Source of the DNA: a virus
Lineage: Duplodnaviria; Caudoviricetes
DNA: 55,402 nucleotides
Virus record (IMG/VR): IMGVR_UViG_3300029448_000052
Span: 1-55,402 of that record
Strand: one strand, 5' to 3'
Shown: positions 11,489 through 54,744 of the stretch, in pieces
How the letters are laid out: the number at the start of each line of letters is the position of its first letter
Position numbering within the stretch: the stretch's first letter is position 1
Position numbers and translations under genes: made by a program
The notes under the pieces: generated by a model
Told to the model about the DNA's origin: nothing
Database searches by the model: none
Seen by the model: only the letters and a program-made list of their open reading frames with translations

Positions 11489-12051
11489 TGGAACCCATAT
11501 CCACAGCTTTAGCTGGTATCGCATTATTTAAAAGTGCCGTTGATGGTATTAAAGGTGCTATCGGCACAGCAAAAGATGTGGGTGAGATAGCTGGTTTTAT
11601 CGACCACCTTTTTGAAGGTGAGAAACAAGTACAGCAAAAACGTAACCAAAAATCAACTCAAACAGTTGGTGATCAATTTGGTATAAAATCAGTAGCACAA
11701 GAAATCATAGATGCAAAATTAGCTAAAGAACAAATGCAAGAGATAGCAACTATGGTAGATATGCGCTTTGGTCATGGAACATGGCGCAGTATTGTAGATG
11801 AAAGGGCTAAACGTATACGTGAAGCTAAAGAAGCTGAAGCATTAGCTCGTAGAGAAGCAGCTAGAAAACACAAAGAGTTACAAGAAAACATAAAACAAGC
11901 GATGATGATAATATCAGTTATCCTTGTAATGGTGGGATTTTTTGTAATCATGATAATTTGGGTTGCAAAAGCATCCTTAAATGATCCACTCTTTATACCC
12001 CTCAGCCAACACTCTGCTACTAATATCAATTTTACTTCGCAAAGCCTTTAA
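11488..12051 (+). CDS. hypothetical membrane protein (coiled coil plus C-terminal TM helix)
   Basis: Coupled start; hydrophobic MMIISVILVMVGFFVIMIIWV; overlaps the convergent helicase gene by 75 nt. Confidence 0.6.
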   Translation: MEPISTALAGIALFKSAVDGIKGAIGTAKDVGEIAGFIDHLFEGEKQVQQKRNQKSTQTVGDQFGIKSVAQEIIDAKLAKEQMQEIATMVDMRFGHGTWRSIVDERAKRIREAKEAEALARREAARKHKELQENIKQAMMIISVILVMVGFFVIMIIWVAKASLNDPLFIPLSQHSATNINFTSQSL

Positions 12052-13422
12052 TACTTTTTCATCTACTGTTTTTTCTGTAACAATATCTACATAGGTTACT
12101 TTATTAGTTTGTCCTATACGGTGTGCTCTATCTTCACTTTGCAACCTAACTTCAAGATCGTATCCATTACTGTAATATATGACTGTTTTAGCCTCAGTAA
12201 GAGTTAGACCATACCCACCTGTTCTTGGTTGTCCCACAAAAAATCGTAGAGGGTTAGCAGGGTCTTGGAAGCGTTCTACAATAATCTGGCGTTCCTCTGC
12301 TGGGGTAGCACCGTAGAATAATTCTACGCTATCCTCACCATATTCTTTGGCAAGAGCTTTTTGTATTATCTGTAGATCATGTGTAAAGTTACCCCATATA
12401 ATAACTTTACCATCTGTTTCTTCAAGAACAGACATTAGTTCAGGTAACTTATTACTTGGAACTTCAACCATTCTGCCATCTTCAAATTTAGCAAACCCAG
12501 AGCATACTTGTTGTAATCTAAGTATTTGAGTTAGCACAGTAGGCGCAGATATAAGCCCACCATCATCCCCTTCTACAATAGCAAGAGCCATAGTTTTCAT
12601 TTGCTCGTACAGTTTCTTTTGCTCGGTAGTGAGCTCTACTGTTCTGCGAGTGTAGACTTTATCTGGTAGATCTAAACAATCTTCTTTACGTACTCTGTAA
12701 CTGAAGGTTTCTATCATACCATTTAATTCATCTAAATTTTGGTACCCAACAATTTGGTTGAAGCTGTGCGCTCCCATTGTACGACGCATCATTTTAGCGT
12801 ACCTGTTTTGGAATGTCCAAAAGCTGCCTTGCCCAAGGATATAATGCTCTAAAAACTCACACTGAGTGTATAAATCAAGAGGCGATTTAGTTACTGGCGA
12901 ACCTGTAAGTATCCTACGATACGGCGCATTTTTACCTATTCTTATCAAGTTTTTAGTGCGTTGGGCTGTCCTACTTTTTATAGTAGTGCTTTCATCTACT
13001 GCAAGCATAGCCCTATGCGTAAGTAGAAATTTATCTGCTGCTTCTAAACCACGTTTAGTGCTAAGAGCTTCTACATTCATAAGGAATATTTGTAAGTCTT
13101 CAGTAACTTGCCTGAGTGTATCTAACTCTTTTCTTTTCTTTTGAGTTTGCTCAGGTGACCATGTAACAATGTTCATGTTTATATGGTCAGGCATATGGGT
13201 TGGTAATTCTTTACGTTCCCAGTTTCTATATACACCTTTAGGTGCAATAATTAGAGCACTATCAAGTTCACCTTTATCGTACAACATAGCTATTGTATCG
13301 ATAAGAACTTTAGATTTGCCTGTACCCATATCCATAAACAGAGCGTAATACGGTTTATTCCATGATTTTATTAAAGCCTCGAGCTGATGCTCATAGGGCT
13401 TATGCTTAAACTTGTACCTCAT
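11977..13422 (-). CDS. SNF2-family (SF2) helicase
   Basis: DMGTGKS (motif I), VDES (II), ILTGSP (III), GGYGLTL (V), QSEDRAHRIGQ (VI). Confidence 0.92.
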   Translation of the reverse strand: MRYKFKHKPYEHQLEALIKSWNKPYYALFMDMGTGKSKVLIDTIAMLYDKGELDSALIIAPKGVYRNWERKELPTHMPDHINMNIVTWSPEQTQKKRKELDTLRQVTEDLQIFLMNVEALSTKRGLEAADKFLLTHRAMLAVDESTTIKSRTAQRTKNLIRIGKNAPYRRILTGSPVTKSPLDLYTQCEFLEHYILGQGSFWTFQNRYAKMMRRTMGAHSFNQIVGYQNLDELNGMIETFSYRVRKEDCLDLPDKVYTRRTVELTTEQKKLYEQMKTMALAIVEGDDGGLISAPTVLTQILRLQQVCSGFAKFEDGRMVEVPSNKLPELMSVLEETDGKVIIWGNFTHDLQIIQKALAKEYGEDSVELFYGATPAEERQIIVERFQDPANPLRFFVGQPRTGGYGLTLTEAKTVIYYSNGYDLEVRLQSEDRAHRIGQTNKVTYVDIVTEKTVDEKVLKALRSKIDISSRVLAEGYKEWII

Positions 13423-13500
13423 AACTTCCTCTTTCTACTGGAATATTTTTATTCTACTGTTTTTACATATAGGGTGCAAGTTTCATTTTATCCACTTTAC

Positions 13501-13740
13501 TATATAGGATGGAAACGACAACGAGTGAAAATTTGTTTTTTAACATTTTCCGATATCACCAAAAAATATATATAACTTTCTCTGTCCGCGCGATAATTTT
13601 TGAAAACTTTTTTGTTTTGTTTCAATGCGTTTTACCCCCTATTATAAAAAGTGCGGATATAGCGGATATATTTGTTTTTTACCAGAGCAAACTTGACAGG
13701 CATATTTTGCCAATATATGTTAAACCTTAATAATAATGCG
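13501..13740. promoter_or_regulatory. divergent intergenic control region, possible replication origin
   Basis: AT-rich gap between divergent genes; TTGACA at about 13693; shares motifs with 31503-31652. Confidence 0.45.
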
Positions 13741-13766
13741 TAACCATGTGGAGAAAGGCATGAACA

Positions 13767-14096
13767 ATGACAGTATATATAACACAGGAGATGCGGGGTC
13801 GTGATATTACGGATGCCACAAGTTTCGGAGATATCGAAATATTACTTCCCGCAGGAGAGCAAGCCAGCTACTCTACTCAACCTACTATTAGAAAACTGGG
13901 TAGAAAGCTCGGCAAGTTTACCGACGAAGATTACTTACTTCTTGCAGGAGATCCCGCAGCTATTGCTTTAGCTGCCGCTGTAGCTGCTAGAGCTAATGGC
14001 GGTAGGTTTAAGATGTTGAAGTGGGATAGGCAAGAGGGTAAATACTTCCCTCTCATAGCAGACCTTAACTTTCGTCCAGGAGATAACGATGGTTGA
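13767..14096 (+). CDS. hypothetical protein (replication module)
   Basis: ORF with RBS; DYLLLAGDP...LKWDR. Confidence 0.65.
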   Translation: MTVYITQEMRGRDITDATSFGDIEILLPAGEQASYSTQPTIRKLGRKLGKFTDEDYLLLAGDPAAIALAAAVAARANGGRFKMLKWDRQEGKYFPLIADLNFRPGDNDG

Positions 14097-14640
14097 TTTT
14101 GAAAGTGTGGCAGCTAAACTCAGCACAATTGATGAGTCTGGTTTAAGCCAAGTAAGTAAACTGGCTCAGTTACAATTACAACTTGAGCAGCGTGTTTACG
14201 ATTTAGAAGCTGATCTGAAGCAAGCAAAAATAGATTTAAAACAAGTAGCCGAAGACCAACTTCCAGCAGCAATGGCTGAGCATAACGTAACTGAGTTTAA
14301 ACTAGCTGATGGTTCTAGTATTAGCGTGGCTAAATTCTATAGTGCAAGCATCCCAAAAGATAGATCGGATGAGGCGTTTACTTGGTTAGTGCAAAACGAC
14401 CACGGTGATTTAATTAAAAACCAAGTCGCTACTAATTTTGTACGTGGTCAAGAAGAGCAAGCTGAAAAGTTTGCAAGTGAGTTGGCTGGCCGAGGTATGC
14501 CTGTCAACACAAAAAAGTGGGTGGAACCTATGACTCTTAAGGCTTGGGTTAGGGAAAAAACCGAAGATGGAACAAACATACCACATGATTTGTTTGGTGT
14601 GTTTGTTGGTGAAAAATCTAAAATCACAAGGAGTAAGTAA
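14089..14640 (+). CDS. hypothetical protein (coiled-coil N-terminus, replication module)
   Basis: AFTWL...GDLIKN...TLKAWVRE pattern typical of genes preceding phage SSBs. Confidence 0.65.
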   Translation: MVDFESVAAKLSTIDESGLSQVSKLAQLQLQLEQRVYDLEADLKQAKIDLKQVAEDQLPAAMAEHNVTEFKLADGSSISVAKFYSASIPKDRSDEAFTWLVQNDHGDLIKNQVATNFVRGQEEQAEKFASELAGRGMPVNTKKWVEPMTLKAWVREKTEDGTNIPHDLFGVFVGEKSKITRSK

Positions 14641-15461
14641 TGAGTGAAGGAAAACAAGAAATAGTGCGCGGTGCGTTGGCTGCTAAGAGTAGCACTGATC
14701 TAGCTGTGGCGGCACAGTTTGAAGAGTATAGCAGTGCAGGATTCAGTGAGGTTACTGCTGAAGATTTATCTATACCTTTTATCAGGGTATTGGCACAGCT
14801 AAGTCCACAGGTAAATAAGCGTGATGGTGCCTATGTAGAAGGTGCCGAGGCAGGAATGCTTTTTAATACCGTTTTAAACGAAGTTTACGACGGTGTAGAG
14901 GGTATCCAAGTAGTGCCGTGCCATTATAACCGTAGATTCGTCGAGTGGAAGCCACGTGAGCAGGGTGGGGGTTATGTACAATCGTATGAAACTACCGATC
15001 CGATTGTAAATACTACAACTAAAAATGATGTAGGGCAGGATGTATTACCAGATGGTAATTTACTGAGTAATACAGCGCAGTTTTTTGTTCTATTGATGCA
15101 TCCTGAGTTAGGAGCGCAACGTGCTTTAATAACTATGTCTTCCACACAGTTGAAGAAGGCTAGAAAGTGGATGACACAAGCACAATCTATGACTGGTCAG
15201 GGTAAAAACGGTGTGTACACTCTGCCACTAATGTCACAGGTTTATAAGGTAGGTACAGTTCAAGAGCAGAATGATAAAGGTACATGGTTCGGGTTTGATA
15301 TTACTCGGGTGCGTGGCCTTGACCTTGCAAGCGAGGACGATAAACAACTGTTCGCTACTGCTCTACAGTTTGCAGAATCTATTAAAGCTGGTGATGTGCA
15401 AGTAAAAGAAGACAAATCCGCTAACACAGAAAAAGACGGTGACGACGACATACCGTTTTAG
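14640..15461 (+). CDS. putative single-stranded DNA-binding protein
   Basis: Acidic C-terminal tip DGDDDIPF, the SSB-Ct motif; lies upstream of primase and helicase. Confidence 0.7.
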   Translation: MSEGKQEIVRGALAAKSSTDLAVAAQFEEYSSAGFSEVTAEDLSIPFIRVLAQLSPQVNKRDGAYVEGAEAGMLFNTVLNEVYDGVEGIQVVPCHYNRRFVEWKPREQGGGYVQSYETTDPIVNTTTKNDVGQDVLPDGNLLSNTAQFFVLLMHPELGAQRALITMSSTQLKKARKWMTQAQSMTGQGKNGVYTLPLMSQVYKVGTVQEQNDKGTWFGFDITRVRGLDLASEDDKQLFATALQFAESIKAGDVQVKEDKSANTEKDGDDDIPF

Positions 15462-15572
15462 TTCAACGAGGGGGGTTGATCGCCCTTTCGTTGCGAGAGA
15501 GTAGTTGGCAAAGTTCCAGAAGAAGAGGGTTCACCCCTTCTACTCTCTCACCCTATTTAGCAGGAGGATACG

Positions 15573-17096
15573 ATGTCACTTGCACAAAGATTTTATGATT
15601 TATTTAAAGGCAGCGATATTGCTCACGGCACATATGTCGTAAAGAGCAGTCGTAGCACTGATGGCAAAAAGCAGGGTCAGGCTACAGTTTTGCGTGAGCC
15701 AACTACTGTAGATATGTGGGAAGAACATTTAAAAGGTGGCACAGGATTAGGCATAATACCTATCCGCAGTGATAACCTTTGCCAGTGGGGTGCAATAGAT
15801 ATAGACCAATATGATGTTAGCCATAAAGATTTAGTAACAGTATTAAAAGATAATAAGATACCAGCCGTTGTTGGTAGGACTAAATCAGGTGGAGCGCATA
15901 TCTGGGTATTTTTAACTGAGCCAATTGAAGCTGAAGATGTACAAAGGCGTATGACAGAATTAAGTGCGGCTCTTGGTTATTCGGGTAGTGAAATATTCCC
16001 CAAACAAACGACCATATTAAAAGACCGTGGTGATACAGGTAACTTCTTAAATATGCCTTATCATGGTGGTGATAATTCCACACGTTATGCTTTTAATAAT
16101 GAAGGTGAGGCATTGGGTGCAGAACAATTTTTAGATTACGCACAATCATTTATTCTTACACCAAATAAATTCTTAAAACTTGTTATGAGTTTTGGAACTA
16201 AAGATGGTGTGCTAGAAGAAGGTCCCCCATGTTTGCAGCACCTATGTAGTAAAGGATTTGGCGAAGGCTCACGTAACAATGCTTTATTTAATCTTGGTGT
16301 GTATGCACGAATGTTTGATGAAGAAAATTGGGAAGTGTTAGTTCAGCGATACAATATGGATTACTTACACCCACCCCTCAGTCATAATGAGGTAGGTGTG
16401 GTTATTCGCCAGCTTAAAAAGAAAGATTACTTTTATAAATGCGACGATCAGCCAATAAAGCCCTTCTGCGATAAAGAAATATGTAAGGGCAGGAAGTATG
16501 GTGTTGGTCCAACAGGTATAGGCAATGATATGTCTAGCCTTACAAAAATTGATGGTGACCCACCTATATGGATATTAGATGTAGATGGTGAACGGTTAGA
16601 GCTTTCCACTAATGGGTTAACTAGCCAAGCACAGTTTCAAAAAGAATGTGTTTCACAAATAAATAAATTCCCTGTAGTTGTAAACCAGAGGGCATGGCAG
16701 ACAAGAATACAACTGTTATTGGATAATTTAACTATTATAGAAGTGCCGCCCGATGCCACAATAAAGGGTGAGTTTGAAGATTTACTTCATGCCTTTTGCT
16801 GTGAGAGAGCTAAAGGTGAAGACCGTGAAGATATATTACAAGGTGTTGCTGTTTGGGTAGAGGGCAGGGTGTTTTTCCAAGTAAAAGATATTAAAAAGCA
16901 CTTGTCTGTAAATGATTTTACACATTACAGTTCTAATAAGATCACACTGCGATTACAGAATATAGAAGCAGAAAAGATGTTCTGGCGTGTGAGAAATAAA
17001 GGTGTACATGTTTGGTCGTTACCCCAAGAGTTTTTTCAAGGGGAGGATGTTGATATTCCACTGCCAGACTTACCAGTAGCAGATGGGATTATATAG
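15573..17096 (+). CDS. primase (AEP-like prim-pol with PriCT-like domain)
   Basis: AIDID, TKSGGAHIW and EIFPKQ motifs; GEGSRNNALF. Confidence 0.8.
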   Translation: MSLAQRFYDLFKGSDIAHGTYVVKSSRSTDGKKQGQATVLREPTTVDMWEEHLKGGTGLGIIPIRSDNLCQWGAIDIDQYDVSHKDLVTVLKDNKIPAVVGRTKSGGAHIWVFLTEPIEAEDVQRRMTELSAALGYSGSEIFPKQTTILKDRGDTGNFLNMPYHGGDNSTRYAFNNEGEALGAEQFLDYAQSFILTPNKFLKLVMSFGTKDGVLEEGPPCLQHLCSKGFGEGSRNNALFNLGVYARMFDEENWEVLVQRYNMDYLHPPLSHNEVGVVIRQLKKKDYFYKCDDQPIKPFCDKEICKGRKYGVGPTGIGNDMSSLTKIDGDPPIWILDVDGERLELSTNGLTSQAQFQKECVSQINKFPVVVNQRAWQTRIQLLLDNLTIIEVPPDATIKGEFEDLLHAFCCERAKGEDREDILQGVAVWVEGRVFFQVKDIKKHLSVNDFTHYSSNKITLRLQNIEAEKMFWRVRNKGVHVWSLPQEFFQGEDVDIPLPDLPVADGII

Positions 17097-18613
17097 TGCA
17101 TATTGTACTCGGACCTCCAGGAACAGGTAAGACAACTAAGCTCTTGGATTTAGTTGAACAATACATGCAATCGGGAGTACCGCCAGACCGTATTGGTTAT
17201 TTTGCTTTTACTCGTAGGGCAGCAATAGAAGCTATAGATCGCGCTTGTATTAAGTTCAATTTAACAAAAAAAGAGTTACCGTACTTTCGCACCCTACATA
17301 GTTTAGCTTTTTTCATGTCAGGTATGAAACACTCACAAGTTATGACTGGTGAGAAATACCAAGAAGTTGCTGAATGGTTAAAAATAGGTAAGTTTTTTGG
17401 TGGAGGGGTAGTTGACCAAGGACCATACAAAGATTTCGGGTATGGTGATAAATTCCTTGAAATAATTAACGTATCTCGTATTTTGCGTCAACCATTACGC
17501 CAAGTTTATAATGAAAGTATTGTCCCCTTAAAAACAGATTGGGCAAGAGTAGAATATGTTAGCCGAGGATTGCAGCATTGGAAAAAAGCATACGGCTTAC
17601 AAGATTATGCGGGAATGTTAGAAACTTTTGTAGACCAAGAATTATGCCCACGATTAGAAGTAGTTTTTATTGATGAAGCACAAGATTTATCCCCCCTTCA
17701 GTGGGAGATGGTAAGATTACTAGAGCGAAATAGCCAGATGTGCTATGTCGCTGGAGATGACGACCAAGCCATTTTTCGTTATGCTGGAGCAGACGTAGAT
17801 CATTTTGTAGGACTCCAAGGAGAAGTCACCCTCTTGAATAAGTCCTATCGTATTCCCTCCTTGCACCATGCACTTAGTCACAAAGTTATAAAGCGCATCG
17901 TAGGAAGGCGGGACAAAATCTTTGAACCCAAAGAAGGTGATGGTGGTATGTTCTGGCATAGGCACTCCGAAGAAGTGGATTTAAGTTCGGGTGATTGGCT
18001 GTTACTTAGTCGCACTACTCGTGGCGCACAGCAAATAGAGGAAGAAGTACGCCGAAGAGGACACCTCTATATTTACAATGGTTCAACAAGTATAGATAGT
18101 AAAGTGTTAGAGGCAGTACGCTATTGGGAACATTTACGCGAAGGTAATCGTTTAAATGCAGAACAGGTCAAACTTGTTTACAAACACATGCTTTTGAATA
18201 CTCAGGTGGCTTATGGTTATAAGACTATGCCTGATGGTGATGATTCTAGTTTTTATAGCCTTGAAGAATTACAAAGGGATCATGGTTTAATGCACAGTCA
18301 GCCTTGGGATGTGGGGCTAGGTAAAATAAATGAACGTGATCGCACATATATAAAAGCCTGTTTACGTAAAGGTGAAAGCCTAACTGATACGCCACGTTTA
18401 CGAATATCTACTATTCACTCCTCCAAAGGAGCTCAAGCTACGAATGTTATGCTGTTGACTGATACTATGCGTAGACCCTACAGTATGTGGAGGAAAATAA
18501 ATAACCACGTAGAAGATGAAGCTAGGGTATTTTATGTAGGTTTAACAAGAGCTACAGATAACCTACATTTGATTCACCCGATGTTTAGTCAAGGATACGC
18601 TCTTCCCAGCTGA
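17096..18613 (+). CDS. UvrD/Rep-like SF1 helicase
   Basis: GPPGTGKT, IDEAQD, GDDDQAIF, STIHSSKG, YVGLTRA. Confidence 0.92.
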   Translation: MHIVLGPPGTGKTTKLLDLVEQYMQSGVPPDRIGYFAFTRRAAIEAIDRACIKFNLTKKELPYFRTLHSLAFFMSGMKHSQVMTGEKYQEVAEWLKIGKFFGGGVVDQGPYKDFGYGDKFLEIINVSRILRQPLRQVYNESIVPLKTDWARVEYVSRGLQHWKKAYGLQDYAGMLETFVDQELCPRLEVVFIDEAQDLSPLQWEMVRLLERNSQMCYVAGDDDQAIFRYAGADVDHFVGLQGEVTLLNKSYRIPSLHHALSHKVIKRIVGRRDKIFEPKEGDGGMFWHRHSEEVDLSSGDWLLLSRTTRGAQQIEEEVRRRGHLYIYNGSTSIDSKVLEAVRYWEHLREGNRLNAEQVKLVYKHMLLNTQVAYGYKTMPDGDDSSFYSLEELQRDHGLMHSQPWDVGLGKINERDRTYIKACLRKGESLTDTPRLRISTIHSSKGAQATNVMLLTDTMRRPYSMWRKINNHVEDEARVFYVGLTRATDNLHLIHPMFSQGYALPS

Positions 18614-20080: not shown

Positions 20081-20698
20081 ATGTTCTATGCAATATGTGA
20101 AGGTTTTCCAGGAAGTTCTGGTCCAGCCTACATTGTTTATAAGTTTCCTACGCTAGAATCTATGAAGCCGTGTGAAGCTGTAAATGAATATAGTATTATT
20201 TACAATGGCGATTCGCATAGGCAGCTAATTGATTTCTGCTCTTTAGAAGAGCTAATTGAGATAGCTACCTGTTTGTGTATTGCGTTTACTGGCACGGAAG
20301 AAGTTAAATTTGTTTCTCTCCAACAAGCGGCTGACTATGTCCACTCAGTAGTGGTAAAGAAAGCTAAATTATGGAAACCCGAAAAGGAGTCTGATATGTC
20401 TACTGTTCATGTAGATCAATTTAATAATAAAGCACAGAAGCATGAAGCAGAGGTAAAAGAAACTAAAAAACCTCGCACTCGTTTTAGGAATGATGCTCGT
20501 ATCATTCTGTTAAAAGATACACCTACTGTGCGTGAAGGCACTAATCGTTTTCGTAATATGAAAGTTATTATGGAAAGTGCTACAGTTGGTGAAGCAATAG
20601 CTAAACTTCGCGCACTTACTCCTGCTCCAGGATCTGGGGTGGATATTAAGATAGCATGCGACGCAGGTGTTATAAAACTAGACTGGCAAGAGGAATAG
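20081..20698 (+). CDS. hypothetical protein, with a possible in-frame internal start at 20396
   Basis: RBS hairpin upstream; internal AAGGAG-N6-ATG at 20396. Confidence 0.6.
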   Translation: MFYAICEGFPGSSGPAYIVYKFPTLESMKPCEAVNEYSIIYNGDSHRQLIDFCSLEELIEIATCLCIAFTGTEEVKFVSLQQAADYVHSVVVKKAKLWKPEKESDMSTVHVDQFNNKAQKHEAEVKETKKPRTRFRNDARIILLKDTPTVREGTNRFRNMKVIMESATVGEAIAKLRALTPAPGSGVDIKIACDAGVIKLDWQEE

Positions 20699-20700
20699 CT

Positions 20701-21597
20701 ATGTTACCCGAAGCTGTAGAAAGTTACTTCGGCTGGATAAATGAGCGGCACTCAATATATCAACGCAGATTATTGGGTGCGCCACCACCTTGGACTAATG
20801 ATTCTATCCTGCAAGAATATAAGTTTACAAACCCTTTCCGTGAAAACGATAGGGTAACTGTATGGATGCGTGATAAATGGACAAAGCCAAATGATAACCG
20901 CCCACATGGTGAGATGATATTTAACTGTTGTATGTTTCGTATGGTTGGCACAAGTGAGTTTGCTGAAGAACATGGGTGGGTGGAAGATTTTAACCCACAA
21001 AAAACCAAACACCTTATTGAGTCAAGACTTTCTCTTGGTAAAAGAACATTTACTGGTGCATATATAATCACTAACCAAGGACTCAAAGCACCAAAATCTG
21101 AGGTAGTAGTTGACCACTTCCTTACGCCAATCTGGGAAAATAAAGAAACGCTGGCGAAGATTGCCCAAAAAACGCAGTCGCTCCAAGCGTTACATGAAGC
21201 GATGGGTGCGTATAAAGGGTGGGGAGGAGGAGGTTTTATGTCATACGAGGTGGTTACCGACCTCAACTACACACCTGTACTGGACAAGGCAAAAGACCGT
21301 TTTACTTGGGCTAACGCAGGTCCGGGAGCTATACGAGGAATTAACCGTATCCTCGGAAGAGATTTAAAAAAGGGTATGACCCAGCCTACAGCTAATGAGA
21401 ATATGGTTAGATTATTAAAACATGCACCCTATCATGTTTTAGGACATATCCCACTTAAACAAATAGATATGCGTACTATTGAGCATAGCTTATGTGAGTG
21501 GGATAAATATGAGCGTGTAAGGTTAGGGCAAGGTAGACCAAGAAGTGTTTATCGCCCTACTTTATTAACAGATACACCAAAAGGAGCTGTAGAATGA
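20701..21597 (+). CDS. aGPT-Pplase1 family (amino-acid:DNA transferase-like) thymidine hypermodification enzyme
   Basis: WINERHSIY...PPPWTNDSILQEYKFTNPFRENDRVT, FMSYEVVTDL, GPGAIRG, IEHSLCEWDKY; adjacent to a TS homolog. Confidence 0.85.
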   Translation: MLPEAVESYFGWINERHSIYQRRLLGAPPPWTNDSILQEYKFTNPFRENDRVTVWMRDKWTKPNDNRPHGEMIFNCCMFRMVGTSEFAEEHGWVEDFNPQKTKHLIESRLSLGKRTFTGAYIITNQGLKAPKSEVVVDHFLTPIWENKETLAKIAQKTQSLQALHEAMGAYKGWGGGGFMSYEVVTDLNYTPVLDKAKDRFTWANAGPGAIRGINRILGRDLKKGMTQPTANENMVRLLKHAPYHVLGHIPLKQIDMRTIEHSLCEWDKYERVRLGQGRPRSVYRPTLLTDTPKGAVE

Positions 21598-22868
21598 AGT
21601 TTCTAATGACAATGTTTCAAATACAAGATTACGGTGGAATCATTAACCATGCTGAGTATCTTGCTAAAGGTTTAAAAGAGTTAGGCCATGAAGTTGATTT
21701 TACTATGCTCGTGCCTAAACATAAAGTAGCCGCTAAAAGTCCCCCACCAAAAAACTTTGACCAATATCGTAAGGTTGGCACAGGATATCTACACCATCAA
21801 GCTAGGGGGTGGGCTGGTTTACCTAAGATCCCTTATCTTTCTAAATACCAAAGGGATTTGTTTAAACAGAAGTGTAGCAAGTATGATGCTGTTTTATGGC
21901 ATATCCCTGTACCCACCATGAGTAAGGAAAATAAAGGTATTACCGATTGGTTAGATTTGTATGACCACGGTACTAAAAACATAGCTATCATACATGATGG
22001 CAATTTGCCTGAGTTATACCCACACCTAATCCATGTACGCGAGATGTTCCATTCTGCTGTATGTGTACATGAGTCAGCTATGATTTCTGGTAGTATGTTA
22101 CCCATACCCCGCAAGCTGATAGTAAATCCGTTTGATGTTGGTATGGCAGATGGTTGGACTGACTTTGAAAAACGTGATGGTTTTGCAGCGGTGCAAGTTT
22201 TTAAAGCATGGAAACGTGTAGATACTTTAGTCCGCGCGATTAGATACATGACCCACAAAGAACAAAAGCTAATCGGTGGTGAAGGTATAGAATACAGATA
22301 CATGACAAGCCGTGATAAATGTAAGCCTAAATATTTTGACGAGCTAGGCGAACGCATTTGGGATAGAGCCAAGCGTTATGGTATGGAGCATTTAGGAACT
22401 GTGCCAAATGATAAAGTGTTTGAAATACTAAAACAGGTAAAGCTACAGATTGACCCGAGCTACAGTAAAAAGTATTCTAATTTTGGCGCACATTTTAATA
22501 GGACAACAGTAGAAGCAATACTCTGTGGTGCTGTGCCTGTGGCTACTGATTGGGGTATGCGGGATAGTGAAATATTTAAAGCAGGACAAAACTATATACA
22601 AATCCCAGCAGAGTGTGAACCGTTTAAGTTTGCTGACATTATAGATAATGCCATACATGATAAAGATCAATGGCTTCGTATAAAAGAAAACAATCTAAAA
22701 TTACTAGAGTTGTTTGATATGCGTAATGTAGCTCAAAGCTATGTTGATCTGGTAAACAATACACAAGAACTACTTATCGGCACTCCAGATGCTAAAGCCA
22801 TGCAAAAATGCCATAAAAACCTAGAGTTCTTCGGTATTAGCTCTTCAGACACTGCTCGAGTGGTTTAG
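21594..22868 (+). CDS. GT-B fold glycosyltransferase, putative DNA-modifying
   Basis: GGIINH...LAKGLKELGHEVD N-terminus, KAWKRVD, EAILCGAVPV; coupled to the aGPT-Pplase gene. Confidence 0.8.
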   Translation: MKFLMTMFQIQDYGGIINHAEYLAKGLKELGHEVDFTMLVPKHKVAAKSPPPKNFDQYRKVGTGYLHHQARGWAGLPKIPYLSKYQRDLFKQKCSKYDAVLWHIPVPTMSKENKGITDWLDLYDHGTKNIAIIHDGNLPELYPHLIHVREMFHSAVCVHESAMISGSMLPIPRKLIVNPFDVGMADGWTDFEKRDGFAAVQVFKAWKRVDTLVRAIRYMTHKEQKLIGGEGIEYRYMTSRDKCKPKYFDELGERIWDRAKRYGMEHLGTVPNDKVFEILKQVKLQIDPSYSKKYSNFGAHFNRTTVEAILCGAVPVATDWGMRDSEIFKAGQNYIQIPAECEPFKFADIIDNAIHDKDQWLRIKENNLKLLELFDMRNVAQSYVDLVNNTQELLIGTPDAKAMQKCHKNLEFFGISSSDTARVV

Positions 22869-22927
22869 TATTGTTTAGGCCACACACCTACTACCCCTAA
22901 CCTTTAACCACGTCGAGGAGGCGTTGT

Positions 22928-23905
22928 ATGCAGTCAATTTATGCAAGAGGAGTAAGCGAAGCTCTGTTTTTAGGTCAACAAGCCTTATTTTCGTCAGGTA
23001 AGGAAGTAAACACCCGAAATGGTTTAGCACTTGAGTTTCCTACCCCTGTTATGACAACTTATACCCATAGCAGGGAACGAGTTTTGTTTTACCCAGAACG
23101 TGATGCTAACCCTTATTTCCATTTAATGGAAAGTTTATGGATGTTAGCAGGACGAAATGATGTGCCTTGGATTTTAGGTTTTAACGGTCGCATGAATACA
23201 TATAGTGATGATGGTAAAACTTTCCACGGTGCTTATGGTTACAGATGGAGGGAATGGTTTGGTAAAGATCAGTTAAAGATTATTCTGTTTAGATTAGGCA
23301 CTTACCATAACGACCGTAGAGCTGTTTTAGGAATATGGGATCCTCACCAAGATTTAGTTGAAACTAATGATGGGAAAGATTACCCCTGTAATACCCAGAT
23401 ATATTTTTGGGAGCGTAAGGGTGAACTAAATATGACTGTAACTAACCGCAGTAATGATATGATCTGGGGTGCGTATGGTGCTAATGCTGTTCACATGTCT
23501 GTGCTGTTAGAGTATATGGCTGGGATGCTTGGATATGTTGTAGGCACATATTATCAATTTAGTAATAATCTTCATGCATATACAGATGTCTTAGAAAAGT
23601 TAGAAGGTATGCAAGCAGATTATGAACCTTACCTTACATTAGGTGATGATGGGTTGAGTTATAACCCACCAGCTTTAATTGATGATCCTGATACATTTGA
23701 CCAAGAGCTACAAAAATGGTTTTTAGATGAAGCAAGAGTGACTTACAATAATAGTTATTTAGGATCTACTTGTGGAAATATGCGTAAGTCATGGAGATTC
23801 TGGAAAAATAAAAGTTACGATAATGCTTTTCATTGTGCCAATGCAATAGAAGATCGTGCATGGCGTAGAGCCTGTGTGGATTGGTTGCAAAGGAGAATTA
23901 AGTGA
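22928..23905 (+). CDS. thymidylate synthase homolog, probably dUMP hydroxymethylase
   Basis: GAYGYRWR, catalytic YPCN, RSNDMIWGAYGAN (Asn indicates dUMP-type specificity), NLHAY. Confidence 0.85.
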   Translation: MQSIYARGVSEALFLGQQALFSSGKEVNTRNGLALEFPTPVMTTYTHSRERVLFYPERDANPYFHLMESLWMLAGRNDVPWILGFNGRMNTYSDDGKTFHGAYGYRWREWFGKDQLKIILFRLGTYHNDRRAVLGIWDPHQDLVETNDGKDYPCNTQIYFWERKGELNMTVTNRSNDMIWGAYGANAVHMSVLLEYMAGMLGYVVGTYYQFSNNLHAYTDVLEKLEGMQADYEPYLTLGDDGLSYNPPALIDDPDTFDQELQKWFLDEARVTYNNSYLGSTCGNMRKSWRFWKNKSYDNAFHCANAIEDRAWRRACVDWLQRRIK

Positions 23906-24261
23906 ATAGGGAAAAATATGAGGATTACATGAAGCGTAAATTAAAAGAAGAAGAAGTAAGCTCTGTTATTAAACAGGTTGGTAAGCTCAGTGTTTTAGAC
24001 CATGTTAAGTTGGAAGAAGCTGAACAATCTTATGGTGATAGTTGGAAGCAGCGCGGTGGTGTTGGTGCTTTTATGATGTTAGCTCGTAAATGGGATAGGC
24101 TTGAAAAACAAGTCACAGAACATAATTATGATGTGTTTAAAGCTATACAAGAAGATAACAGGCAGGAAGGTATAATAGATGATATACGTGATCTGCGTAG
24201 GTATTTATTTCTTGTAGAAGCGGAGATGATTTTACGCGGCAATGTCAGAAAACAAAAGTAA
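23902..24261 (+). CDS. nucleotide-modification-associated helical protein (Nmad1/DUF1599-like)
   Basis: SYGDSW...RKWDRLE...DDIRDLRRY; position within the modification cluster. Confidence 0.6.
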   Translation: MNREKYEDYMKRKLKEEEVSSVIKQVGKLSVLDHVKLEEAEQSYGDSWKQRGGVGAFMMLARKWDRLEKQVTEHNYDVFKAIQEDNRQEGIIDDIRDLRRYLFLVEAEMILRGNVRKQK

Positions 24262-24418
24262 TTTAGATAAAGAAGTATTAGCCGAGTGCGAGTGCGGAAG
24301 AGAAACGAAGATTGTTACTTTCCGTAATCTTAAAAATAGATGGCCGATATGCAGTAAGTGCAAAAGGCCGATGAAAGTAAAAGGTAATGCAATACCCATT
24401 ATTTCAACCACCGACTGA
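24242..24418 (+). CDS. 58-aa zinc-ribbon protein (not in the ORF track)
   Basis: MSENKSNLDKEVLAECECGR...PICSKCKRPM; fills the gap before polA; GGAG upstream. Confidence 0.55.
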   Translation: MSENKSNLDKEVLAECECGRETKIVTFRNLKNRWPICSKCKRPMKVKGNAIPIISTTD

Positions 24419-26315
24419 GTGGGTTATGCCTGATGGCTACCCCGATATTTCTAGTGCTAAAGAAGTTGCTATTGATTTAGAAACACGCGATCCTAACCTT
24501 ACGACGATGGGAAGTGGCTGGCCTAGAAAAGATGGTCACATTATTGGGATAGCTGTGGCAACAGAAGGTGACCAATGGTACTTCCCCATCAGGCACGAGA
24601 TTGGTCCTAACTTTGATGTAAAAAGAACTTTAGGATGGTTAGCAGATGTTTGTAAAATTGATAGGACTTACGTTTTTCATAATGCTCCTTACGATGTCGG
24701 CTGGATGCTCGCAGAAGGTGTGCGTGTACAAGGAAAAATCATTGACACAATGGTCGTTGCGCCACTGTTAGATGAAAACAGATTCAGTTATGCTTTAAAT
24801 GCTATTGGTAGAGATTACCTGCAAGAGCGTAAAAGTGAAGTTGAGTTAAGGGAAGCAGCCGAGGCTTTTGGCGTAAATGCTAAAAGTGAGATGTATAAAC
24901 TTCCTGCTCATCATGTGGGAAAATATGCTGAACAAGATGCTGCGTTAACATTGAAACTCTGGCAGCATTTTAAAACACTAATAATAAAAGAAGATATTAA
25001 AGATATCTTTGAACTTGAAATCAATGTTCTTAAAACAATTATACCAATGCGCGAGCGTGGTGTCAGGGTTGATTTAGATAAATGTGAGCGTATAAAGAAA
25101 GAGTTGCTACAAAAAGAACAACAACTGTTAGGGTTGATAAAAAGACAAACAGGGGTAGAAGTAGAGATATGGGCGGCTGAAAGTGTATCTAAGGCTTTTG
25201 ATGCGTTAGACCTACCTTACAGTAAAACAGAAAAGACTGGTGCTCCTAGTTTTACTAAAGGGTTCTTAAGTAATCACCCTCACGAAGTCCCACAAATGAT
25301 TGTACAAGCTAGAGAATATCAAAAAGCACGTAGCACATTTGTAGATACTATACTTAAACACCAAATAAACGGACGTATACATGCTGAGCTGCACCCTTTA
25401 CGTAATGATGGGGGAGGCACGGTTACTGGTAGATTTAGCTATAGCAACCCTAATCTTCAACAAATACCAGCAAGGCATGGCGAAATAGGTCCAATGATAC
25501 GCAGTTTGTTTATACCAGAACAAGACTGTTTATGGGGCGCATTCGATTACTCCAGCCAAGAACCACGTATTGTTGTGCATTATGCTAAACTCATGGGCTT
25601 CAGAGGGGCTTCTGACTTTGCTGAACAATACAATGCTGACCCACGTACAGATTTCCACCAAATGGCGGCTGATATTGTGGGTGTCCCGCGTAAACAGGCA
25701 AAAGATATCAACCTTGGTTTATTCTATGGGATGGGTAGTAAAAAGTTAGCAGCGAGCCTTGGTTTAGAGTTTGAAGATGCTCAAGAACTGTTCGCCACAT
25801 ACCATGATAAAGTACCCTTTGTGCGTGAGCTTAGTGATTATAGCACTAATCGAGCTAACTCTCGTGGTGTTATCCGCACATTATTAGGGCGTAGGTGTAG
25901 ATTCGATAAATGGGAGCCTAATAAGTATGGGACTTGGAAGCCTATGACTTACCAAGAAGCCTACGCAGAACATGGTCCTGGAATCAAAAGAGCGTTTACA
26001 TACAAAGCTCTTAATAAACTCATACAAGGCAGCGCGGCAGATCAAACAAAAGCAGCGATGGTTGCTCTAGCTGATGAAGGCATACTACCCATGATTCAAG
26101 TACATGATGAGCTGGATGTATCTGTTGAGTCAGAAGAACAAGCAAAAAAGATAACTGAAATAATGCAAGATTGTGTTAAATTAGAAGTCCCTTCTATAGT
26201 GGATGCTGAGTTTGGTCCAAACTGGGGGGAAGCAAAACAAACTTTCACGGAAAAACCGTGGGTAAGAGGATTAAAAGATGGCAGCACAGAAATGCAGCAT
26301 AACATCACAAATTAA
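24387..26315 (+). CDS. polA: DNA polymerase family A with 3'-5' exonuclease domain
   Basis: IDLET (Exo I), TVTGRFS..NPNLQQIP, DYSSQEPR (motif A), KDINLGLFYGMG (motif B, Leu762), QVHDEL (motif C). Confidence 0.95.
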   Translation: MQYPLFQPPTEWVMPDGYPDISSAKEVAIDLETRDPNLTTMGSGWPRKDGHIIGIAVATEGDQWYFPIRHEIGPNFDVKRTLGWLADVCKIDRTYVFHNAPYDVGWMLAEGVRVQGKIIDTMVVAPLLDENRFSYALNAIGRDYLQERKSEVELREAAEAFGVNAKSEMYKLPAHHVGKYAEQDAALTLKLWQHFKTLIIKEDIKDIFELEINVLKTIIPMRERGVRVDLDKCERIKKELLQKEQQLLGLIKRQTGVEVEIWAAESVSKAFDALDLPYSKTEKTGAPSFTKGFLSNHPHEVPQMIVQAREYQKARSTFVDTILKHQINGRIHAELHPLRNDGGGTVTGRFSYSNPNLQQIPARHGEIGPMIRSLFIPEQDCLWGAFDYSSQEPRIVVHYAKLMGFRGASDFAEQYNADPRTDFHQMAADIVGVPRKQAKDINLGLFYGMGSKKLAASLGLEFEDAQELFATYHDKVPFVRELSDYSTNRANSRGVIRTLLGRRCRFDKWEPNKYGTWKPMTYQEAYAEHGPGIKRAFTYKALNKLIQGSAADQTKAAMVALADEGILPMIQVHDELDVSVESEEQAKKITEIMQDCVKLEVPSIVDAEFGPNWGEAKQTFTEKPWVRGLKDGSTEMQHNITN

Positions 26316-26811
26316 AACACTCACAACGGTCTGGGATGCCCAGTTTTTACTGAGGTACCACACTGTTGCGAATCAATCAGAAAGGCAAACCGTGGGAGCA
26401 CATTCATATGCAGTAAGTGTTTTGATAGATCAATTATGGCCTGATAGCACTAAACAACTGATAATGGCGGCACTATACCATGATGTGCCAGAAATAATTT
26501 TAGGTGATATTCCAGCTACAGCTAAATGGGCTTATCCAGAAATACAACAAGCCTTTGAAAAAGCTGAGAAAAAAGTATTTGATGACCTTGGTTTAATATT
26601 TGTACTTACCCCAGAAGAAAAATCACGACTCAAAATGGCAGATATGCTTGAGTTAGTTTTATATACTCATCGTCACTCACAGGGCAGTGATCAAATGAAA
26701 ATGATCATGCACTCAGGTATAAATTATTTATATGAAAAGTTTTCTTCACAAAAAGATTTTCAACCAATAAAAAAGGTTTTAGCTCACTACAATCTAGGAG
26801 GTGTACCGTGA
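26278..26811 (+). CDS. HD-domain 5'-deoxynucleotidase (YfbR-like)
   Basis: RYH...QTVGAHS...ALYHDVPE...GDIP...KMADMLE. Confidence 0.85.
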   Translation: MAAQKCSITSQIKTLTTVWDAQFLLRYHTVANQSERQTVGAHSYAVSVLIDQLWPDSTKQLIMAALYHDVPEIILGDIPATAKWAYPEIQQAFEKAEKKVFDDLGLIFVLTPEEKSRLKMADMLELVLYTHRHSQGSDQMKMIMHSGINYLYEKFSSQKDFQPIKKVLAHYNLGGVP

Positions 26812-27092
26812 ACTGCATCAAGTGTGGGAAAAAAAGTAAAGTTTATAACAGCCGACCTCATCAAAACACTATTAAAAGACATAGAAAGTGTTTGAAGTGT
26901 GGTCATAAATACGCCACATTAGAAGTTATATTTATTGTAGAAGAGTTACCTAAACCTAAACCAAAACCAACTAAATTGAAATTAGTTAAAAAACCTGTAA
27001 GAAAACAAAAAATGAAATTTGAAGACCTAGATCTAGCAAGCATGACAGATGAAGAGATAGAAATAGCTATATCTAGTGGTAATTATCTATAA
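26808..27092 (+). CDS. NrdR-like N-terminal zinc-ribbon protein
   Basis: MNCIKCG..SKVYNSR...IKRHRKCLKCGHKYATLE; no ATP-cone. Confidence 0.7.
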   Translation: MNCIKCGKKSKVYNSRPHQNTIKRHRKCLKCGHKYATLEVIFIVEELPKPKPKPTKLKLVKKPVRKQKMKFEDLDLASMTDEEIEIAISSGNYL

Positions 27093-52939: not shown

Positions 52940-53790
52940 GCTATACATACACAGAATTAAAATCATCAATACAAGATTACACTGATAATAATGAATCTAG
53001 TTTTGTTTCTAATTTAGATAGATTCATAAAATCTGCAGAGCAACGCATTTTTTCTACTGTGGATTTAGAGTATTTTCGTAAAAATGTATCAGGATCAATG
53101 ACAGCTAGTAATCAATTTATGGCTGTACCAACTGATTATCTAGCTTCTTTTAGCATGTCTATAGAGAGTTCTAGCTCAAAAATCTTTTTACTGCAAAAAG
53201 ATGTAAACTTCTTACAGGAAGCTCACCCTAATTCTAGTACAACAGGAATACCTAAATACTATGCTGTGTATGATATAAACAATTTTATAATTGCTCCTAC
53301 ACCTAATGATAGTTTTTCTACAGAGCTTCATTATTATTATCGTCCTACTAGTTTAGCATCCAGCACTTTTAATTTAACTGTTAATAGTGTTTCTGGGACG
53401 TTTGCAGCAGGAGAAACTATAACAGGCGGTACGAGTGGTGAAACTACTTCTATAATCTCTGTTACTTCCACCACTGTTTTTGTTGTGGGTATACCTACTG
53501 GTTCTTTCACTGTTGGAGAAACAGTGACAGGTGGAACAAGCGGAGCTACAGGTGTTGTAGTATCTACTTCTGCAGACACCACTTTAACGTGGGTCAGTGA
53601 AAATGCACCAAATGCTTTATTATATGGCAGCTTATTTGAGGCATATACCTATATGAAGGGCGAAAAAGATATATTAGATTTGTACAATGGTAGATTTATA
53701 GAGGCAATAAGTCGAATTAAAGATTTAGCAGAAGCCCGTGAAAACTCGGATGCTTATAGAGTAGGGTTACCAACTAGAGCAAGGTCATGA
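52936..53790 (+). CDS. head-tail connector-like protein with an inserted duplicated motif
   Basis: FIKSAEQRI, PKYYA, APTP, ALLYGSL; insertion with two F..GET.TGGTSG units. Confidence 0.65.
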   Translation: MSYTYTELKSSIQDYTDNNESSFVSNLDRFIKSAEQRIFSTVDLEYFRKNVSGSMTASNQFMAVPTDYLASFSMSIESSSSKIFLLQKDVNFLQEAHPNSSTTGIPKYYAVYDINNFIIAPTPNDSFSTELHYYYRPTSLASSTFNLTVNSVSGTFAAGETITGGTSGETTSIISVTSTTVFVVGIPTGSFTVGETVTGGTSGATGVVVSTSADTTLTWVSENAPNALLYGSLFEAYTYMKGEKDILDLYNGRFIEAISRIKDLAEARENSDAYRVGLPTRARS

Positions 53791-54464
53791 AAATAGCCAT
53801 AGTAGGCCTCGGTGGTAGTTATGCTGATTACATTTCTGCCAGAGTTGCGTCACAAGAATTTGATGAAGTATGGGGTATAAATTGTATAGGAGCAATAATA
53901 CACGTTGATAAGACGTTTATGATGGATCCTGTTTCTAGATTTTTAGATACAGAAAATGCTGGTACACAAACAGGTGTAGCTAGAAATTTTTTAAAAAATA
54001 ACAAAAAACCTATCATTACTTGCCAACTTGATAAACGTATAAAACAGTTAGAGCTATTCCCTTTAAAAGAAGTCGCAACAGAACTTGGTTTTTGTTATTT
54101 TAATAATACTGTCGCTTATGCGGTAGCTTATGCTATATGGGCAAAAGCCACTCAGATTTGTTTGTACGGTATTGATTATACTTACAAAAATGTGAGTATG
54201 GCAGAATCAGGTAGAGCATGTGTTGAGTTTTGGTGTGCGATAGCTGCTAGTAAGGGTATTAAACTTGAAGTAGCCCACAGATCTACTTTATTAGATACCA
54301 ATGTTCCAGATAACGAAAAACTATATGGATATCATCGTTTAGATGATCCTTTAGTACAAACTGTAAAAGATGGGGGACTGGTTATAACAAGACAGTCTGA
54401 GGTAGAACCGCCAGAGCCAGTGGAAAACAACCCCATTATTTTTGGGAGACATGATAATGTTTGA
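53787..54464 (+). CDS. Rossmann-like protein, possibly glycosyltransferase/MptE-related
   Basis: KIAIVGLGGS, EVWGIN, NTVAYAVAYA, ICLYGID. Confidence 0.45.
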   Translation: MKIAIVGLGGSYADYISARVASQEFDEVWGINCIGAIIHVDKTFMMDPVSRFLDTENAGTQTGVARNFLKNNKKPIITCQLDKRIKQLELFPLKEVATELGFCYFNNTVAYAVAYAIWAKATQICLYGIDYTYKNVSMAESGRACVEFWCAIAASKGIKLEVAHRSTLLDTNVPDNEKLYGYHRLDDPLVQTVKDGGLVITRQSEVEPPEPVENNPIIFGRHDNV

Positions 54465-54744
54465 TTTAAATGTAGGAAGTGTGGGGGCTGTTAATATAGT
54501 GACCTCTGAAAACGGTGGTTTATCTAATGATCAAATAGCAGAAATGTTGGCTAGTAAACTTATTTATATCTCTGATGATGCTCCAGAACCTATACGTTTA
54601 CAAGCTGAGGCTTTTAGAGATAAAGTAAGGAATCTAGCGCAATACTATATAGAGTTGGCTAGAAAAGAAGAACGTGCTAGTATTTGCTCCAAGGTCCGTG
54701 AGGCTGGACAAATGGAACTAGCAAACGCTATTGGGAGACTGTAA
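54457..54744 (+). CDS. hypothetical protein
   Basis: Coupled ORF in the tail region. Confidence 0.55.
   Translation: MFDLNVGSVGAVNIVTSENGGLSNDQIAEMLASKLIYISDDAPEPIRLQAEAFRDKVRNLAQYYIELARKEERASICSKVREAGQMELANAIGRL

Follow-up and report, generated by a model that had tools for sequence, protein, structure and literature searches.

The window analysed in this study is the whole virus record IMGVR_UViG_3300029448_000052, a linear stretch of 55,402 bases with a CheckV completeness of 94%, and nearly all of the genes of this phage are located on the plus strand. Between positions 20,701 and 26,811, the record holds a cluster in which the gene of a PF18723 protein is followed by those of a GT-B glycosyltransferase, a homologue of thymidylate synthase (TS), a small conserved protein, a family A DNA polymerase (PolA) and an HD-domain protein. 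To our knowledge, all of the thymidine-hypermodification pathways that have been worked out phosphorylate 5-hydroxymethyldeoxyuridine (5hmdU) in the DNA and then transfer an amine or an amino acid, and the sugar-bearing form of hydroxymethyluracil that is known is base J of the kinetoplastids. We lean, cautiously, toward the reading that this cluster encodes a kinase-less variant of phage thymidine hypermodification, in which 5hmdU would be incorporated into the DNA and O-glycosylated there to give a base-J-like product. The phage DNA probably bears a sugar-coated type of thymine for which there is no prior chemical demonstration in any phage.

The first gene of the cluster (positions 20,701-21,597, plus strand) encodes a protein of 298 amino acids that matches PF18723 with an E-value of 1.7e-50 and 172.4 bits against a cut-off of 25, and the match covers profile positions 3-276 of 281. 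The listed open reading frame (ORF) begins at position 20,656, and most relatives begin at the methionine equivalent to position 20,701; the start at 20,701 and the aGPT-Pplase1-like assignment of the first-pass annotation, which was made from the letters alone, both agree with these results. The aGPT-Pplase family is said to have been defined by Iyer et al. in 2013. In Pfam, its former clade 1 is named HMUDK_hel (PF18723) and its clade 2 is named ADDT (PF18724). In phage PaMx11, gp46 is the ADDT, gp49 is the kinase and gp50 is the PF18723 protein, and the protein of the window matches gp50 at 3.8e-41 and not gp46. According to the accessible passages of two papers, the transfer of glycine, serine, putrescine or diaminopropane is performed by the clade 2 enzyme (PMC8989533, PMC13458397), and the kinase of the M6, ViI, PaMx11 and PhiW-14 pathway places a single phosphate on 5hmdU (PMC8989533). 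The first-pass annotation had started from the premise that 5hmdU is pyrophosphorylated before an aGPT-Pplase enzyme transfers a group, and this premise has to be revised: the transferase is the clade 2 enzyme, the kinase adds one phosphate and the window contains only clade 1. The same passages of PMC8989533 give no demonstrated activity for clade 1, and they describe the clade 1 protein of M6, gp55, as dispensable in the reported in vitro reconstitutions. Therefore, the window encodes the member of the pair without a demonstrated activity. The name of PF18723 implies an association with a kinase; however, its neighbour in this phage record is a glycosyltransferase.

The ATG of the glycosyltransferase gene (positions 21,594-22,868, plus strand; 424 amino acids) and the stop codon of the PF18723 gene overlap by 4 bases. 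The protein matches Glycos_transf_1 (E-value 4.8e-8; 33.2 bits against a cut-off of 26.4), and its AlphaFold2 model, with a predicted local distance difference test (pLDDT) of 90, has a GT-B fold with two Rossmann domains, all of which bears out the coupled GT-B glycosyltransferase that had been recognised in the annotation. The best Foldseek matches of the model are retaining GT-B enzymes of the GT4 type (HepE at 1.8e-14, together with PimA, BshA and MshA). The complex of T4 alpha-glucosyltransferase (AGT) with DNA is also matched (E-value 5e-12; TMq 0.62), and its TM-score is equal to that of the GT4 enzymes. No T4-type AGT or beta-glucosyltransferase (BGT) was matched by tblastn or by the profile search against the PDB, in which HepE was the sole match, and the modelled likeness to T4 AGT is one of fold and not of family membership. 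The canonical donor-binding motif of such GT-B glycosyltransferases is E-x7-E. In the protein of the window, Glu307 is invariant and lies within the stretch ...VEA..CGAVPV..., and its spacing to the preceding FG differs from this pattern. Among the other window ORFs scanned, no gene for nucleotide-sugar synthesis turned up; therefore, the donor would be a nucleotide-sugar of the host. We propose that the protein is a DNA 5-hydroxymethyluracil glycosyltransferase.

The TS homologue (P0004; positions 22,928-23,905, plus strand; 325 amino acids) belongs to the TS superfamily (Pfam 1.7e-18; phrog_5131 2.3e-102). It matches PaMx11 gp51 at 3.6e-78, far closer than any true TS, and its scores are lower than the cut-offs of all the NCBIfam TS equivalogs (in one case, 71.6 against 174.6 bits). 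Among the solved structures, the CMP hydroxymethylase MilA is matched best (1.7e-14) and is followed by true TS (7.5e-10). An asparagine in the stretch ...GANAV... aligns with the aspartate of MilA at what we take to be the site separating the uracil-specific from the cytosine-specific members, and the dUMP-type asparagine that the annotation had read in this TS homologue is thereby recovered. We infer that the protein is a hydroxymethylase of deoxyuridine monophosphate (dUMP) rather than a methylase, because of its kinship with MilA and gp51 and because the bases of PaMx11 and M6 derive from 5hmdU according to the accessible passages of PMC8989533. On this sequence kinship, we regard it as highly probable that the pathway would begin with the TS homologue and the replacement of T by 5hmdU. 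The PolA gene, with its 3'-5' exonuclease domain, lies at positions 24,387-26,315 (plus strand; DNA_pol_A 2.5e-61; DNA_pol_A_exo1 6.5e-8) and the HD-domain YfbR-like 5'-deoxynucleotidase gene at positions 26,278-26,811 (plus strand; YfbR-like 4.7e-11), in accordance with the polymerase and nucleotidase of the annotation. The HD protein matches the NCBIfam 5'-deoxynucleotidase model at 4.8e-8, which is below the cut-off, and it matches PaMx11 gp52 at 4.7e-17; its gene is syntenic in PaMx11 and PhiJL001.

The absence of a kinase was assessed by several methods. The kinase models PF18748, PF18747, PF13671, PF02223 and PF06414 have no match at E ≤ 10 in the whole record, and neither does PF18724 (ADDT). 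A phmmer search of 508 six-frame ORFs with the PaMx11 kinase (gp49) and ADDT also found nothing. The Walker A pattern occurs five times in the record, in the UvrD-type helicase (positions 17,096-18,613) and in four ORFs of the structural half that are 164-1,057 amino acids long. The Walker A-like match at positions 54,744-55,196 was considered as a kinase and rejected; the protein is Gly/Thr-rich, of a structural type, and has no match to a kinase-family Pfam model. The statement of the annotation that no kinase is present in the window is thus upheld by the five kinase hidden Markov models (HMMs), by phmmer and by the Walker A scan, and the HMM search of the record for a 5hmdU DNA kinase that it had proposed found none. 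Among 50 related records, of which 20 are at least 90% complete and three have terminal repeats, PF18748 is matched in none and PF18724 is above its cut-off in none (the PaMx11 control scored 97 bits). AAA_33 is above its cut-off in two of the 50 relatives, both times far from the module (a 151-amino-acid protein; one on a 135-kb contig), and the control of this search, the PaMx11 kinase, was detected. Moreover, no match to the PaMx11 kinase or ADDT was found in any of the 80 glycosyltransferase loci that are described below. A kinase in the missing part of the genome, which the annotation had allowed for, is not supported, because near-complete relatives (at least 90%) likewise lack PF18748 and ADDT. 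Judged by these searches, the pathway is one without a kinase and also without the clade 2 transferase.

The module is not restricted to this record. At viral contigs, 220 glycosyltransferase loci were confirmed by tblastn, and 228 homologues occur in a metagenomic protein collection (E ≤ 0.001), whereas tblastn found no homologue in 50,697 cultured-phage records and megablast with the module region found no match in cultured phages. Marine metagenome runs from several studies contain the module stretch solely as assembled contigs, in which a base modification would not be visible. The proteins of the window were compared with the six-frame ORFs of the best 80 of the 220 loci. The glycosyltransferase, PF18723 and the TS homologue occur together at 62 of these 80 loci; the glycosyltransferase and the TS homologue occur without PF18723 at five, one of which is cut at the glycosyltransferase, and the glycosyltransferase occurs alone at 13. 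The triad occurs in at least three gene orders and is kept even where the identity of the glycosyltransferase has dropped to approximately 37%. Furthermore, the PF18723 gene directly adjoins that of the glycosyltransferase at 48 of the 62 triad loci, 31 of which show the 4-base overlap. In a maximum likelihood tree of 38 PF18723 sequences, which includes only three stand-alone kinase-linked rows and has an arbitrary root, the glycosyltransferase-linked sequences are not separated as one group from the kinase-linked sequences, and well-supported branches require at least two changes of partner; a single change is allowed by none of 200 bootstrap trees. These results support the view that the glycosyltransferase has taken the place of the kinase/transferase in a conserved module.

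The loci at which the glycosyltransferase occurs alone are informative with respect to its substrate. Tet_JBP was found in 10 of the 12 glycosyltransferase-alone records that were searched, whereas a search of the 45 TS-bearing records, the window record included, gave no match to Tet_JBP (PF12851). At one such locus (L076), the order is a DnaB-type helicase, a Tet_JBP oxygenase (1.2e-25), an ORF and then the glycosyltransferase. Therefore, the constant partner of the glycosyltransferase would be a maker of hydroxymethyl-pyrimidine in DNA, supplied either by the TS homologue or by Tet_JBP. Because the glycosyltransferase family pairs with TET/JBP oxygenases elsewhere, the glycosylation of a hydroxymethyl-pyrimidine in DNA appears to be the most economical reading, and the gene neighbourhoods support it. 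According to the available text of bioRxiv 10.1101/2023.12.21.572611, TS genes are often located near GT-B-like phage glycosyltransferases, and the passages of PMC13229309 describe many phage 5mYOX enzymes as probably making 5hmU and as co-occurring with glycosyltransferases. According to PMC4111573, T4 BGT can glucosylate 5hmU in DNA in vitro.

Some details of these other neighbourhoods are worth recording. Glycosyltransferase homologues of approximately 37% identity lie next to Tet_JBP at L076:7622-11350 and in nine records (G039, G041, G042, G048, G051-G056). The Tet_JBP-type records are fragments of much larger phage genomes, estimated to be 3-33% complete, and an unassigned ORF of 282 amino acids lies between Tet_JBP and the glycosyltransferase in those records. 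At L067:6960-14741, a glycosyltransferase homologue is located between two radical-SAM proteins, one of which is B12-binding, and a fusion of PolIII-alpha with a uracil-DNA glycosylase; TS, PF18723 and Tet_JBP were not found at this locus.

On the basis of this gene content, the following pathway can be proposed. The TS homologue, judged by homology, would make 5-hydroxymethyl-dUMP, which host kinases would raise to the triphosphate. The HD nucleotidase may help to deplete thymidine nucleotides and so bias the pool away from dTTP, and the phage PolA would then place 5hmdU in the DNA instead of T. The GT-B glycosyltransferase, as its linkage and fold suggest, would move the sugar of a host nucleotide-sugar onto the 5-hydroxymethyl oxygen of 5hmdU in the polymer, and we consider this direct glycosylation step fairly likely. 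The predicted product is a base-J-like glycosyl-hydroxymethyluracil; its linkage would probably be alpha if the glycosyltransferase is a retaining enzyme, as its structural neighbours are. Neither phosphate activation nor amino acid transfer would occur, because the kinase and ADDT are absent. In the least certain step, the PF18723 protein, which is translationally coupled to the glycosyltransferase, may act on the same flipped-out 5-substituted uracil, either in presenting the base to the transferase or in the later resolution of part of the sites. The annotation had suggested a variant chemistry of this kind, with a glycosylated 5hmU; the loss of the kinase, the glycosyltransferase in its place and the pairing with Tet_JBP favour the glycosylation, and the chemistry remains, in every step, a matter of deduction.

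Several observations weigh against this reading. The sugar, its linkage and its acceptor are all deduced, and the nearest relatives of the glycosyltransferase in both sequence and structure use acceptors other than DNA. PF18723 is missing from the Tet_JBP loci and from the five loci with the glycosyltransferase and the TS homologue; therefore, PF18723 is not an obligatory partner. The DNA of PhiJL001, a cultured phage with a similar cluster, is reported to be digested normally by restriction enzymes in the available part of PMC4276943. In addition, T-containing palindromes are avoided in the window, namely AAGCTT (0 observed against 20 expected), CAGCTG (1 against 19.5), GCTAGC (0 against 13) and ATTAAT (1 against 12.7). 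More generally, AAGCTT, AACGTT, GCTAGC, TGCGCA, GTGCAC, GCGCGC and others have no occurrence in the whole window, where 4-20 would be expected, and CCGG is found 10 times where 56 sites would be expected; among the dinucleotides, CG is depleted (rho 0.63) and TC is depleted on the plus strand (rho 0.74). The annotation had regarded the module as the natural writer of the TC patterning, in regard to which this depletion of TC is the one observation made here. T-containing sites are avoided although full shielding of T would relax the selection on them; therefore, the modification of T is probably partial or context-specific. Finally, PF18723 keeps an invariant Cys-Glu, a hint that the chemistry goes further, and the plain glycosyl-hydroxymethyluracil may not be the final base.

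In 26 glycosyltransferase-linked PF18723 sequences, with identities down to 24%, 20 columns are invariant, including Leu264-Cys265-Glu266. The Cys-Glu pair is also kept in the kinase-linked PF18723 proteins of PaMx11 and Sonora, in PhiJL001 and in eight kinase-fused homologues. An hhalign comparison with two ADDTs is weak (E-value 0.03) and places the Leu-Cys-Glu motif on the catalytic stretch of ADDT both times. According to the passages of PMC13458397, that stretch has a metal-binding glutamate four residues ahead of the catalytic cysteine. Moreover, in nine records the C-terminal half of the PF18723 gene is matched by the ADDT model of Pfam at sub-threshold scores of 13-21 bits, with coordinates checked in three. 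The PF18723 protein is probably an enzyme and not a passive helical domain, because its invariant Cys-Glu aligns with the catalytic cysteine of a characterised transferase clade, and the sequence comparison makes a catalytic role plausible, of which the further processing of the glycosylated base that the annotation had suggested would be one form. The AlphaFold2 model of the protein has a pLDDT of 93.5; a Foldseek search found no solved structure below an E-value of 0.78 (the weak top matches are helix-hairpin-helix (HhH) DNA glycosylases, with a TM of approximately 0.3), and a sequence search of solved structures found no match. A complex prediction for the PF18723 protein and the glycosyltransferase, both given as alignments, scored 0.00, which we count neither for nor against binding.

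Fusions of PF18723 were also considered. Among 18 longer PF18723 homologues, 15 are fused to a thymidylate-kinase-like domain, and the fusion types seen are kinase, MazG and PolA. No fusion to a glycosyltransferase occurs among these 18, and no longer homologue of the glycosyltransferase of the window was found, each of which is weak evidence. The contigs that encode some of the PF18723-kinase fusion proteins (P0129-P0143) are 0.46-3.4 Mb long and probably represent cellular genomes or prophages. Therefore, the family is not limited to free phages.

According to one alternative, the sugar is a leaving group: the glycosyltransferase, as the functional counterpart of the kinase, would activate 5hmdU, and the cysteine of PF18723 would attack C6, expel the sugar and resolve the exocyclic methylene to give thymine or a new substituent, so that the virion DNA would be a patterned mixture of T and modified base. 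The conservation of Leu-Cys-Glu across glycosyltransferase-linked, kinase-linked and kinase-fused PF18723 proteins, its hhalign position on the metal-binding glutamate and catalytic cysteine of ADDT and the weak matches of the ADDT model in nine records all argue for this possibility, as do the 15 kinase fusions, by which PF18723 would work beside an activating enzyme, and the avoidance of palindromes, which fits a DNA with much plain T. Furthermore, M6, ViI, SP10 and PhiW-14 turn 5hmdU into a hypermodified base or into thymine before packaging according to the accessible passages of PMC8989533, in which no thymine-forming enzyme is named. However, on chemical reasoning a glycoside would leave far less readily than a phosphate, no gene that supplies a reductant or a nucleophile was seen in the module, the hhalign E-values are weak and M6 gp55 is dispensable in vitro, and we consider a role of the sugar as a leaving group unlikely. 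A bolder form of the same idea holds that PF18723 resolves activated 5hmdU, for example to thymine, by an ADDT-like chemistry of cysteine at C6 that expels the sugar in place of phosphate, that the kinase and the glycosyltransferase are interchangeable activators that have been swapped at least twice and that thymine and glycosyl-hydroxymethyluracil form a sequence-patterned mosaic in the virion DNA; we regard this combination as rather unlikely.

The glycosyltransferase might instead act on a target other than DNA, such as a glycan of the host envelope or a phage protein, with 5hmdU as the final base or T unchanged, in which case the arrangement of the early genes would have placed it beside the nucleotide genes by chance. 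In Pfam and Foldseek, it neighbours generic enzymes of the GT4 type that serve polysaccharide, lipid and small-molecule pathways, and the reported normal cutting of PhiJL001 DNA points in the same direction. However, the linkage to PF18723 and the TS homologue outlasts at least three rearrangements and a divergence to 37% identity, a TET/JBP DNA oxygenase is the alternative partner in 10 records, and the overlap of 4 bases with PF18723 recurs in 31 loci, and this explanation appears quite improbable to us. Still less can be said for a kinase-dependent pathway that persists with a kinase that is too divergent to be recognised, comes from the host or lies in the 6% of the genome that is missing, which we hold to be highly improbable. 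The 5-HMUDKs are very divergent: a tblastn search with the PaMx11 kinase finds only 28 phage records, and this kinase does not reach the PF18748 cut-off; in addition, the record is 94% complete, and many of its small ORFs have no assignment. However, a P-loop kinase needs a Walker A motif, and the occurrences of this motif in the record are confined to the helicase and to large structural-half ORFs. The five kinase HMMs are blank, both contig ends lie within structural-type genes, relatives that are 100% complete or that have terminal repeats also lack the kinase, and ADDT, which would use the phosphate, is absent as well.

The glycosylation of 5hmdU in DNA, which we prefer, can be compared with known systems. 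The clusters of M6 and PaMx11, and also those of ViI, PhiW-14 and SH-Ab 15599, combine a dUMP hydroxymethylase, 5-HMUDK, ADDT (aGPT-Pplase2) and PF18723. The window shares with M6 and PaMx11 the synteny of PF18723, the TS-type hydroxymethylase, the HD protein and PolA (with PF18723 and the TS homologue matched at 3.8e-41 and 3.6e-78, respectively) and the predicted replacement of T by 5hmdU before replication, with modification on the polymer afterwards. Unlike these clusters, it lacks the kinase, ADDT and the tailoring enzymes (pyridoxal phosphate, radical SAM, flavin adenine dinucleotide and acetyltransferase types), and it has the GT-B glycosyltransferase between PF18723 and the hydroxymethylase. 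The T-even phages, with the dCMP hydroxymethylase gp42 and alpha- and beta-glucosyltransferases, resemble the proposed pathway in that a TS-family enzyme hydroxymethylates before replication and a GT-B enzyme glycosylates the DNA, and the glycosyltransferase model superposes on T4 AGT-DNA complexes with the TMq given above. In contrast to the T-even case, the pyrimidine would be of the uracil type (Asn, not Asp), the glycosyltransferase is Glycos_transf_1 by sequence and PF18723 is coupled to it. As in the base J of kinetoplastids, which is made by the JBP1/2 hydroxylase and JGT, the predicted product is a sugar on 5-hydroxymethyluracil in DNA. However, the hydroxymethyluracil of the window would come from a nucleotide-level hydroxymethylase and not from JBP (0 Tet_JBP matches), its sugar is more likely to be alpha-linked than beta-linked as in base J, and the enzyme is of the GT-B type, in contrast to the GT-A type that the available text of bioRxiv 10.1101/2023.12.21.572611 gives for the JGT-like phage enzymes.

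The closest cultured counterpart is PhiJL001, a marine phage of Alphaproteobacteria in the Mesyanzhinovviridae, in which PF18723, a glycosyltransferase, a TS homologue, an HD protein and PolA are also clustered (gp19-gp28). As in the window, no kinase is detectable with AAA_33 in PhiJL001, and the one weak match is a helicase-type Walker A in an ORF of 414 amino acids. Unlike that of the window, the glycosyltransferase of PhiJL001 belongs to the TAGT family (PF20691, 2.7e-53), and Nmad5 is present. The full row in PhiJL001 (L094, AY576273.1 10929-19256) consists of dGTP_diPhyd_N, PF18723, TAGT, Nmad5, the TS homologue, the HD protein, DUF3310 and PolA. This phage would be a ready cultured test case for glycosyl-hydroxymethyluracil. 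In SH-Ab 15599 (L096, 8961-12326), an unannotated PF18723 gene immediately precedes those of the dUMP hydroxymethylase and the dTTPase/dUTPase; the dapT pathway of this phage was published in 2026, and the available passages contain no mention of the PF18723 gene.

Among the papers covered by our literature search, none reports a phage glycosyl-5hmU or a PF18723-glycosyltransferase module; Iyer et al. 2013 or supplementary material may already list such neighbourhoods. The module predicts a second branch of thymidine hypermodification, in which phosphorylation and amino transfer are skipped and a sugar is placed on hydroxymethyluracil. The 220 confirmed viral-contig loci and the several marine studies indicate that this branch is not the curiosity of a single contig. 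Because of its invariant Cys-Glu site, the module also marks PF18723, a widespread family without a demonstrated activity, as a likely enzyme. If the reading is true, a new 5hmU DNA glycosyltransferase would be useful for mapping 5hmU.

Two unassigned proteins accompany the module. The conserved protein of 119 amino acids (P0005; positions 23,902-24,261, plus strand), which the annotation had called Nmad-like, has no Pfam, NCBIfam or DUF1599 HMM match, and this label is not confirmed. The sole support for it comes from a language model, which pointed to a cluster with DUF1599 in 11% of its members, and we rejected both the DUF1599/Nmad assignment and that of a counterpart of gp18, the dTTPase/dUTPase of SH-Ab 15599 (BLASTP E-value 2.6). 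Homologues of this protein occur in most related loci, either adjacent to the TS gene or immediately before that of the glycosyltransferase. The protein of 205 amino acids (P0001; positions 20,081-20,698, plus strand) occupies the site of the kinase in PaMx11 and has no Pfam, PHROG or NCBIfam match. In an alignment of 13 homologues, a C-terminal domain of approximately 70 amino acids is conserved and the N-terminal half is variable; the Gly-rich N-terminal stretch is not conserved, and a decayed kinase was rejected. The protein is present in most close relatives, and in others it is absent or cut to its C-terminal part.

Elsewhere in the record, an ORF of 225 amino acids (positions 53,787-54,464) amid tail-fibre-like genes has a Rossmann-like Gly-rich strand at its start and no Pfam match. 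A small protein with an NrdR-type zinc ribbon is encoded at positions 26,808-27,092, directly after the HD protein. A replication block at positions 11,977-18,613 comprises an SNF2-type helicase on the minus strand, three proteins similar to Pam3 gp32-34, an AEP-type primase (AEP-TOTE, PriCT_1) and the UvrD-type helicase.

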